Positions 29,848 through 31,659 of a DNA stretch of 64,000 nucleotides are shown here, piece after piece. The position numbers and the translations under genes are program-made. The notes beneath the pieces are model-generated. The model saw only the letters and a program-made list of their open reading frames with translations. It made no database searches and had not been told where the DNA came from. The stretch comes from a bacterium (GTDB taxonomy: Bacteria > UBA8248), in contig CBDBBI010000010.1 in NCBI GenBank assembly GCA_965202625.1, positions 1,504,001 to 1,568,000 on the forward strand, given 5' to 3'. How positions within the stretch are numbered: the stretch's first letter is position 1; the number at the start of each line of letters is the position of its first letter.

Positions 29848-31659
29848 TTATCCTCCTTTTTTCTTCCGTCTTTCGCCGCCACGTTTCTCCCTGGCGGCGC
29901 GGGCGATGTTCTTCGCCGCGTTCTCATCGCGATCGTGTGCCGCGCCGCATTCTGGGCAAGTCCAATGGACTTCCGACCCGAGTTCGTCGTTCGGAACACC
30001 ACAACCAGAACACGTTTTCGACGTATACGCAGGGTTGATTTTGACGACCGCTACCCCCTCGCGTTCGGCGCAATTTTTAATCGCGCCGAGGAATTCACTG
30101 AGCGCGACGTCAAAGCGCTGGCTGCGCGCCTTGTCGGGAAGCTCGTTATCGACGTCGCGCACCTCGGCGAATTGCCTCAGATCGATATCCTCCATACCAA
30201 TCGGCAGGCCGAGCGTCACCATCCTTGACGCGGCGATGCGATATATCTCCCGCCGCCAGCCCAGGGTTTTCCTGCGAAGGCCGTGCATCTCCCCGTAGAG
30301 TTTGCGGGAGCACTCCCGCCAGCGCAGCGTCTCCTCCTCCACTTCGGCAGGCAGATTCCCTCTATTTCTGCGAATATCTCCACCCAGCTTATAGGCCATC
30401 TCAAAGTTCAGGGTAACGTTCGCGGGGAGTTTCACTATCTTGCGGACCAAGCCGTTCACGAGATGCTTCTCATCCAGGGACGCCACAAACGCCTTGAGGC
30501 GAGGTTGAATGAAGCGTCCCAGCCCGGCGGCGCTGTCATCCAGATCCCCTTGAATCTTTTCGACGCGCTTCATGCGGGCAACGAGCTCTGGGGGCAACGT
30601 CACGTGCTGAAATTCCCAACCGGATGCGCTTTCCGCGGCAATCGTCGCAACGCGCAATTCTTGATCGCGCATCTTCTTGAACCCGATGTCCACGCCAAGC
30701 GCTCTGGCTGATGGATCCTCCGGCGGCGTGACAGCCGGCACTCTCACGGAGAAGTTGACCGTATACCTGAACCTGTCGCCCACCCGCCTACGCAGCAGCT
30801 TGGCGTTGTTGATCTGCGCACCCTCGGGAATGGGCCGGTGCAAATGGAGGTGAAATTCCGCATACACCTTGCTCGCCTTTCTCGCACCGCCCGCCACTTT
30901 CGCACGAAGCCGCACCACGGGAGAACCGCCCCGGAGCGCGGCGGGCGCGAGCCTGAAGCTCTCGCTGGCCTTAATTTCGCCGCGCAGGATTTCCTCGAAA
31001 GTCACTCCGTACTTCGTCTCGCCCTCGCCCGGACGCTTGAATCTATAGAAAATAAACCCCGTCCCATCGAACCTGTGAAACCGGAGACGACTCTTCGGAT
31101 TATCGAACGTCCTGCCCCGCGCCTCCTTGAAATATCGGGCGGTCTCATTCGCCGTTGGGCCATTCAGGCAGCCCGTGTTCTTCACTCGCTGGGCCGTTTG
31201 TACGCGCTCGTTAAAATCTCCATTGAGCGCCTTCTTGTCGATGCGCTTGTCCGCTTCCTTCCGATGCGGCTTGATCTCCGCCCACAGCTCCCCTCTCCTG
31301 TCTTTCAGTTTGCTGATTTCACGGTTGGCCCTCTTGATGAGCGGATGGCCGGCATCCCGCGTTTTGGCCTTCTTGCGCGCGTCGCGCTTGCGCACATACG
31401 CCTCGCGAATCTGAAGTTCCACGGCGTCAATCTTCTCGTCGACCTCACGGTATCCAGCATCGGCCGCGCGTCTCGCGTTCTTGTATTTATTCCTTGAATC
31501 CTTATCAATTTCGACGAGTTTGTTCCACAGATCGTTTCTCCGACGTAATTCATCCACCCCCGCCTGGGGAAAAGGATCGACGAACCTCGCCCTGCCTGTT
31601 TTGGAATCAATCGGCACGGCGCCGTATTGATAGACGCGGGTTGTTTCTTTTTTTTCCAT
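29848..31659 (-). CDS. compact type V CRISPR effector, Cas12m (V-M/V-U1)-like, 603 aa
   Basis: N-terminal RVYQYG..ELRRRNDLWNKLVEI, long basic helical insert, RuvC-I LGVDIGF, RuvC-II GMEDIDL, Zn finger CSGC..CPEC, RuvC-III HDRDENAAKNI; directly adjacent to array. Confidence 0.85.
   Translation of the reverse strand: MEKKETTRVYQYGAVPIDSKTGRARFVDPFPQAGVDELRRRNDLWNKLVEIDKDSRNKYKNARRAADAGYREVDEKIDAVELQIREAYVRKRDARKKAKTRDAGHPLIKRANREISKLKDRRGELWAEIKPHRKEADKRIDKKALNGDFNERVQTAQRVKNTGCLNGPTANETARYFKEARGRTFDNPKSRLRFHRFDGTGFIFYRFKRPGEGETKYGVTFEEILRGEIKASESFRLAPAALRGGSPVVRLRAKVAGGARKASKVYAEFHLHLHRPIPEGAQINNAKLLRRRVGDRFRYTVNFSVRVPAVTPPEDPSARALGVDIGFKKMRDQELRVATIAAESASGWEFQHVTLPPELVARMKRVEKIQGDLDDSAAGLGRFIQPRLKAFVASLDEKHLVNGLVRKIVKLPANVTLNFEMAYKLGGDIRRNRGNLPAEVEEETLRWRECSRKLYGEMHGLRRKTLGWRREIYRIAASRMVTLGLPIGMEDIDLRQFAEVRDVDNELPDKARSQRFDVALSEFLGAIKNCAEREGVAVVKINPAYTSKTCSGCGVPNDELGSEVHWTCPECGAAHDRDENAAKNIARAAREKRGGERRKKKGG

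Follow-up and report, generated by a model that had tools for sequence, protein, structure and literature searches.

The DNA analysed here (64,000 nucleotides (nt), positions 1,504,001 to 1,568,000 of the bacterial contig CBDBBI010000010.1; hereafter the window) contains on its minus strand a gene for a protein of 603 amino acids (aa), which its full-length sequence match and its modelled fold indicate to be a type V-M Cas12m effector, followed by a CRISPR array. The protein sequence holds a complete D-E-D triad across the RuvC-I, -II and -III motifs, the feature by which RuvC-active RNA-guided nucleases are recognised. The features of the gene and the array are:

29848..31659, minus strand: cas12m gene (type V-M, clade 4), 603 aa from the ATG at 31659
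30688..30690, minus strand: codon of D324 (RuvC-I, LGVDIG at residues 321-326)
30190..30192, minus strand: codon of E490 (RuvC-II, GMEDID at residues 488-493)
29926..29928, minus strand: codon of D578 (RuvC-III, HDRDENAAKN; DRDENAA at residues 576-582)
29947..30012, minus strand: CCCC zinc finger of the TNB domain (C550, C553, C568, C571)
30124..30177, minus strand: probable lid region with low model confidence (residues 495-512, between RuvC-II and the next helix)
28932..29763, minus strand: CRISPR array directly downstream of cas12m, 13 repeats of 36 nt and 12 spacers of 30-32 nt

The open reading frame (ORF) containing cas12m spans 29848..31767 on the minus strand, and a TTG at 31767, in frame upstream of the ATG, would give a protein of 639 aa. 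The ATG agrees with the relatives: 8 residues precede the conserved VYxYG motif, compared with 4 to 15 in most of them. The three triad residues that an earlier sequence-only reading had placed in the 3' half of the ORF and numbered from this ATG (D324 in LGVDIG, E490 in GMEDID, D578 in DRDENAA) were found exactly there in the 603-aa translation, and the intact four-cysteine finger it had described is also present, in CSGCG (550-554) and CPECG (568-572). The sole Pfam domain matched was PF07282 (Cas12f1-like TNB; residues 522-585, E 1.1e-20, 74 bits, cut-off 26.3), and NCBIfam gave only a TnpB-family match below threshold (99.7 bits, cut-off 100).

The best phmmer match in the PDB was 23vu_A, 'UnCas12m4a' (E 1.1e-125), followed by 23vw_A, 'CRISPR-associated DNA-binding protein Cas12m' (2.9e-30), GoCas12m (8pm4, 1.5e-11) and MmCas12m2 (8hhl, 5e-9); the TnpB matches were restricted to approximately 75 C-terminal residues. 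A protein database search with the 603-aa query returned 70 proteins at E <= 0.001. The family alignment includes the query and 59 of these matches (60 rows), after removal of the ORF of the window itself and of ten fragments (P0040, P0042, P0049, P0052, P0058-P0062, P0067); the H-D-D and HEK clades, absent from the alignment and the tree, enter the comparison through PDB entries only. Widening the sample by a profile search with this alignment yielded just three further proteins, all partial. Searched against the PDB, the family profile matched 23vu (1.7e-229), 23vw (6.5e-124), 8pm4 (7.2e-75) and 8hhl (2e-70); the five Cas12m sequences ranged from 1.7e-229 to 2.6e-70 and the best non-Cas12m entry reached 1.6e-17, the entries scoring at this value or worse including TnpB, Fanzor and Cas12f. 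The alignment with Cas12m2 and GoCas12m runs end to end (profile positions 8-580).

An AlphaFold2 model of the 603-aa protein, built from the family alignment, had a mean predicted local distance difference test score (pLDDT) of 90.3 and a predicted template modelling score of 0.85, with long helices at residues 32-66, 68-98, 106-139, 142-157 and 167-186. The pLDDT dropped below 50 only at residues 499-502, just past RuvC-II, where the 10-residue blocks of 491-510 average 68 and 52; Cas12m2 has a flexible lid at 499-506 (Omura 2023, PMC10442227), and by analogy the low-confidence stretch is its probable counterpart. A Foldseek search with the model, in a structure library ending on 2026-04-08 and without 23vu, placed Cas12m structures in all four best positions (template modelling score (TM) 0.63-0.75; 8hhl_A 0.73/0.75). 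Superposed on Cas12m2 and GoCas12m, the model gave TM 0.73-0.75, and the Cas12f and TnpB chains ranked up to position 19 gave 0.21-0.46, normalised to the query. The single effector of approximately 600 aa is composed of WED, coiled-coil REC, RuvC and zinc-finger TNB domains; the size of 603 aa, the long coiled-coil REC helices of the model and the TNB domain PF07282 are those of a Cas12m, and sequence and fold match Cas12m over the full length, well above TnpB and Cas12f.

The relationship with TnpB (ISDra2, 8bf8/8h1j) and Cas12f is one of shared parts: the D-E-D triad, a zinc-finger TNB of the TSxTC...C type and the DxNAAxN motif are common to them, and approximately 150 C-terminal residues align (E 1e-11 to 1e-17). 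The window system differs in having a coiled-coil REC insertion and a CRISPR array, in being without a long omega RNA or single guide RNA, in the lack of a Pfam transposase match among the eight neighbouring ORFs, and in a much weaker match of the whole-protein fold. The idea that the protein is architecturally intermediate between TnpB and Cas12m, put forward from the sequence alone, is not supported in view of the end-to-end Cas12m alignment, the TM values of 0.73-0.75 against at most 0.46, the array and the absence of such a transposase match.

The family profile aligns D324 to H317 of MmCas12m2 (8hio, native numbering) and H322 of GoCas12m (8pm4), E490 to D485 and D497, and D578 to D579 and D590, respectively. 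Because the 60-member profile places them on the H/D/D of these two proteins, D324, E490 and D578 are read from the alignment as the homologous catalytic positions and not as chance look-alikes. The same profile aligns C550, C553, C568 and C571 to the zinc site H549/C552/C569/C572 (HCCC) described for the prototype MmCas12m2 (Omura 2023). The non-cutting prototype with H-D-D at similar positions to which the sequence-only reading refers agrees both with this alignment and with the published H317/D485/D579 site, for which the source reports no cleavage (Omura 2023). We regard the D-E-D triad and the CCCC finger as ancestral characters retained on a full Cas12m scaffold.

The triad reads D-E-D in 56 of the 60 aligned sequences. 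The four other rows are the truncated P0033; P0069, with N-E-D at 24% identity; and the distant P0070 and P0071, which read D-D-E in a poorly aligned tail. P0043, scored as D-E-D, has a broken zinc finger. In the close clade, 43 of the 603 positions are invariant across the 50 full-length members (overall identity 38-68%), including D324, E490, D578, the four cysteines (550/553/568/571), G322, F327, T546, S547, H575, D576, R577, N580 and N584. A survey of 14 loci (13 from public genomes and one from a genome of the same genus) gave D-E-D in all the loci at 36-50% identity (L013-L017, L003); one at 35% (L018) has a broken frame with a 265-aa ORF and no readable triad, and the more distant loci read N-D-D (4), D-A-D (1) and D-E-D (2). 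The triad is thus neither new nor particular to this protein: it is the invariant state of a whole clade, the solved UnCas12m4a included, and is already listed for clades 3 and 4 (Omura 2023).

A quick maximum-likelihood tree (IQ-TREE, 58 rows, P0033 and P0043 left out as truncated) placed the 603-aa protein and P0050 in one clade of 50 rows, separated from eight distant rows by a branch with an SH-aLRT (approximate likelihood-ratio test) value of 100. P0050, a metagenome protein of the alignment, is UnCas12m4a (1371 bits, residues 1-604 against 11-614). In the scheme of Wu 2022 quoted by Omura 2023 (PMC10442227), clade 3 has DED/NED and clade 4 DED/DND/NED triads. Since the window protein falls in the same 50-row clade as UnCas12m4a and D-E-D is among the clade-4 triads, its sequence assigns it to Cas12m clade 4, a clade name that rests on the depositors' label '4a'. 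UnCas12m4a (PDB 23vu, 23vv) shares with it the clade, the D-E-D triad (IGIDLGF, GVENFN, HDRDTNAA), the CCCC finger and the length class, but is only 41% identical (over 98% of the length); the window protein groups with P0003-P0006 (65-67% identity) in a sub-branch. MmCas12m2 (8hhl, 8hhm, 8hio), the type V-M prototype, has the same fold and domain order and aligns to the profile over its full length, and differs in the H317/D485/D579 site, the HCCC finger, the loss of the RuvC-III NAA motif and an identity of only ~18% in the structural alignment. GoCas12m (8pm4) is of the same family, but H-D-D.

The array lies on the strand of cas12m. Splitting it with a regular expression gave 12 identical repeats out of 13, the degenerate one being the last, at the gene-distal end. 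In its minus-strand reading, the repeat has CUGGAG at -22..-17 and CUCCAG at -8..-3, the register in which -22..-17 pairs with -8..-3 in the MmCas12m2 CRISPR RNA (crRNA) (Omura 2023), also on a 36-nt repeat. ViennaRNA favours a second stem overlapping this pairing, and by analogy the two stems together could form a pseudoknot of the Cas12m2 type. An adjacent array on the same strand with the Cas12m2 stem register and no adaptation genes at the locus, as at the MmCas12m2 locus, is the layout of a type V-M locus. The MmCas12m2 locus has no trans-activating crRNA, and the same is assumed from the family for the window locus, where no search for an anti-repeat was made. Promoter-like sites precede both cas12m and the array (4 observed, 1.3 expected in shuffles; a consensus match only), the latter within the 84 nt that separate the cas12m stop codon from the first repeat. 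Two further features of this part are:

29804..29831, minus strand: promoter-like site (GTGACG, 16 nt, TAAAAT, with TG ahead of the second hexamer)
29698..29727, minus strand: spacer 1, leader-proximal and taken as the newest, with a 30/30 match to cas12c on contig C6

Spacer 1 is the only spacer with a second match in the assembly, at 3574-3603 of the small contig C6 (L001), 30/30, at a site without flanking repeats. The ORF hit encodes a Cas12c of 1272 aa (NCBIfam NF033950, 1081.7 bits, cut-off 250; PDB 7v93 cas12c2, E 1.9e-146); the type V-M array thus holds a spacer against the effector gene of another type V system (V-C). The coding strand of cas12c would be the one that the spacer 1 crRNA pairs with. 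On the non-target strand the protospacer's 5' flank ends in GGAA, although one protospacer cannot define a protospacer adjacent motif (PAM).

At its two ends C6 is 99.8% and 99.2% identical to the main chromosome, so that it is not a separate replicon. Its segment 1505-7855 (cas12c, cas1 and the array) is alternative cargo to 3841-7468 of L012 (C10:2029841-2033468), where the main chromosome has 3.6 kb with two ORFs for BrxC/BrxD-like ATPases and one of 270 aa, and no V-C locus; the flanks, identical in both, are a gene for a molybdopterin dehydrogenase and an ORF of 341 aa. The remaining eight small contigs of the assembly are near-copies of chromosomal regions too. Sister strains in the sample thus differ in their cargo at a single defence hotspot. 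The spacer-bearing main chromosome does not contain the target of spacer 1, and this absence is no evidence for or against cutting. Self-targeting was considered as a sign of no cutting and rejected: C6 is a strain-variant copy, and co-residence of spacer and target in one cell is not established. Pieces ~98.5% like cas12c are found in the sequencing runs X1, X3 and X8; an assignment of cas12c or the spacer to cells from the runs (X1, X2, X3 and X8 against C6) was given up, the contigs, millions of them, being short, of low depth and of several variants.

By analogy with the characterised Cas12m proteins, we think it fairly probable that this clade-4 Cas12m acts as an RNA-guided DNA binder and silencer. 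The array would be transcribed from the short leader, and the protein would mature its crRNA and keep hold of it: a pseudoknot handle of ~30 nt derived from the repeat, followed by the guide on the 3' side. At a PAM-flanked duplex it would open an R-loop and remain in place, so that the invader's transcription or replication is blocked with no cutting of both strands. In this model the D-E-D pocket would hold the displaced non-target strand via bound Mg2+, as the H-D-D pocket of MmCas12m2 binds it through one Mg2+ (Omura 2023, PMC10442227), and such metal-mediated holding would explain why the triad residues are kept. Type V-M is classed as interference by binding in the 2025 CRISPR classification (PMC12669027). 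Eight Cas12m orthologs, four with D-E-D, two with H-D-D and two with N-D-D, have been assayed: according to the source, none of the eight cleaved double-stranded DNA (dsDNA), and PAM-dependent protection of a restriction site was seen in six (Bigelyte 2024, PMC11013384). The D-E-D orthologs of that study, MsCas12m for example, share the family and the intact triad with the window protein; they bind dsDNA and do not cut it. Purified MsCas12m (RuvC D274) is reported to show no target or collateral cleavage of DNA or RNA, and target and collateral cleavage were likewise not seen with GoCas12m (Bigelyte 2024). In Cas12m2, conversion of H-D-D to D-E-D did not restore cutting (Omura 2023). Two 2026 preprints describe variable or conserved D-E-D residues (PmCas12m N-D-D, phage MvCas12m D-E-D).

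Several points weigh against this silencing role. The Cas12m proteins tested are not demonstrably of clade 4, and the position of the RuvC-I aspartate in MsCas12m (274, compared with 324 here) suggests a different, shorter branch. The whole RuvC signature (D324, E490, D578, H575, D576, R577, N580, N584) is frozen in the clade, whereas more distant Cas12m branches drift to N-D-D, D-A-D or N-E-D; a live active site would be expected to show just such strict conservation. Omura 2023 (PMC10442227) regards clades 3 and 4 as possible cases of genuine two-metal hydrolysis. The depositors label 23vw a 'DNA-binding protein' and 23vu only UnCas12m4a, labels from which no inference is possible. The only protospacer found, absent from the spacer-bearing chromosome, fits cutting as well as silencing.

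Alternatively, a live RuvC on a Cas12m scaffold, with the two-metal chemistry of TnpB, would nick the non-target strand, cut both strands or degrade single-stranded DNA after R-loop formation. The triad stands in canonical contexts (DIG, a hydrophobic stretch ahead of the glutamate, HDRDxNAAxN), TSKTCxxCG and the CCCC finger are TnpB-like where the prototype has HCCC, cleavage by clades 3 and 4 has been proposed (Omura 2023), the chromosome with the spacer does not have the array's single known target, and, the best argument for a live RuvC, the motifs are invariant in 50 of 50 full-length clade members despite their overall divergence. Metal-mediated strand binding can, however, also account for that conservation; the four D-E-D orthologs and the cis and trans assays of MsCas12m gave no cleavage (Bigelyte 2024), and a triad alone is insufficient for cutting, because the D-E-D engineered into Cas12m2 stayed inactive (Omura 2023). 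We hold active cleavage by this protein to be unlikely, if well ahead of the alternatives that follow, and doubt to about the same degree, or slightly more, that clade-4 Cas12m proteins in general, this one included, are live RuvC enzymes (non-target-strand nickases or conditional cutters). What stands of the nuclease-competent or intermediate role suggested earlier is a Cas12m effector with a complete D-E-D and CCCC set, unlike the prototype; the step from there to a nuclease is weakened by the non-cutting D-E-D orthologs and by the Cas12m2 conversion. The triad might instead be kept for RNA work, the RuvC site processing pre-crRNA and the DNA being only bound. In Cas12c and Cas12j it is the RuvC site that carries out crRNA maturation (Omura 2023), and Cas12m processes pre-crRNA in a Mg2+-dependent way at a site not yet identified in Cas12m (Bigelyte 2024); however, processing was unaffected by D274A in MsCas12m (Bigelyte 2024) and little or not affected by D485A in Cas12m2 (Omura 2023), which makes this improbable. 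Least probable of all is a decaying or silent remnant, with an intact triad that has no present function: adaptation genes are absent beside cas12m (eight ORFs scanned) and the identical neighbouring spacers 5 and 6 hint at array rearrangement and not at fresh uptake, but the 603-aa frame is open with all the family-invariant residues, 12 of the 13 repeats are identical, promoter-like sites stand ahead of gene and array, and the leader-proximal spacer perfectly matches a gene present in the same sample.

For clade 4, both the D-E-D state and the idea of cleavage have already been published, and a structure is already deposited; the deposits 23vu, 23vv and 23vw suggest that clade-4 biochemistry is under way. 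No publication on Cas12m4 or UnCas12m was found in the literature searched, where the matches were all to 'cas12m1', and no title among those listed for Cas12m since 2025 dealt with clade 4. Base and epigenome editors make use of Cas12m as a compact DNA binder that is naturally free of nuclease activity, and cutting by the D-E-D clades bears on whether type V-M is uniformly silencing and on where cleavage was lost from TnpB. If clade-4 Cas12m were a live RuvC enzyme, type V-M would have both silencing and cleaving branches, and that activity would have left its mark in the RuvC signature, frozen in 50 of 50 members. The gene adds to clade 4 one sequence, 41% identical to UnCas12m4a, with its native array and one natural target, a protospacer that could guide the choice of a first test substrate.

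Full-length relatives occur in 2 of the 22 other genomes of the same genus searched (G001, G007), with ~42% identity over residues 250-600; because of this scattered occurrence at such identity, the evidence points to sporadic, horizontally acquired Cas12m loci in the genus. The relative in G007 (L003 1522-3468, minus strand) is a protein of 648 aa, ~43% identical over residues 250-600, with D-E-D, a variant finger (CSTPKC ... CPEC) and a Lys/Arg-rich insertion in the REC part, and it has its own array with a 66-nt period. CRISPR arrays were detected beside 7 of the 14 surveyed loci with a strict detector (an exact 20-mer repeated at regular spacing), five of them with the 66-nt period of the window array.

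Within the window array, spacers 5 and 6 are identical, adjacent repeat-spacer units being duplicated (29331-29462), which looks like a within-array duplication. Spacers 8 and 9 (29132-29263) are AT-rich (27-29% G+C; ~58-62% in the genome) and similar to each other, as if one region had been sampled twice from related invaders. No match was returned by IMG/VR for the first 22 nt of either, nor by phage records for the array as a whole; searched against plasmids, the array gave four records at E 0.2-0.8 covering 3-4% of the query, taken as chance and not as protospacers.

Pfam scanning of the eight neighbouring ORFs gave matches in six and none in two, and found no cas1, cas2, cas4 or transposase family:

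Neighbour Pfam matches: Type ISP restriction-modification enzyme, S15 peptidase, two glycine-zipper lipoproteins, LysR regulator, GltB

Some 5 kb separate the array from the Type ISP restriction-modification enzyme (1160 aa, 20862-24344, minus strand; PF18135 E 2.7e-78, with an N6 methylase domain in addition). Just past the gene-distal end of the array, two closely similar genes for glycine-zipper/17-kDa-antigen lipoproteins (27691-27960 and 27636-28496, plus strand) lie in tandem.

Cas1 is encoded in the assembly only at C10:2385099 and on contig C6, and not at the cas12m locus. The chromosomal copy belongs to a type II locus (L011 5960-15444; C10:2381960-2391444) with cas9 (1037 aa, 705 bits), cas1 of the NMENI type, cas2 and an array of 77 repeats of 36 nt with spacers of 29-30 nt. 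From the gene order we guess subtype II-C. Because the type II and V-M arrays share a 36 + 30 nt geometry, the V-M spacers were probably supplied in trans by the type II Cas1-Cas2 of the genome.

On C6, cas12c is followed by a cas1 gene and then by the V-C array (L001 6604-7878; 30 repeats of 25 nt and 29 spacers of 18-19 nt), whose spacers had no match in the assembly at 0 or 1 mismatch. One of them (L001 ~7664) matches 16 of 18 bases inside the type II spacer at C10:2387558-2387587, a level reached in 0 of 300 shuffles; this suggests that V-C and type II have recorded the same invaders or related ones, and it links C6 to the same lineage or community. Another type II spacer, at C10:2388284, agrees in 27 of 30 bases with positions 14066-14095 of contig C3, which is in part a diverged copy of chromosomal regions.

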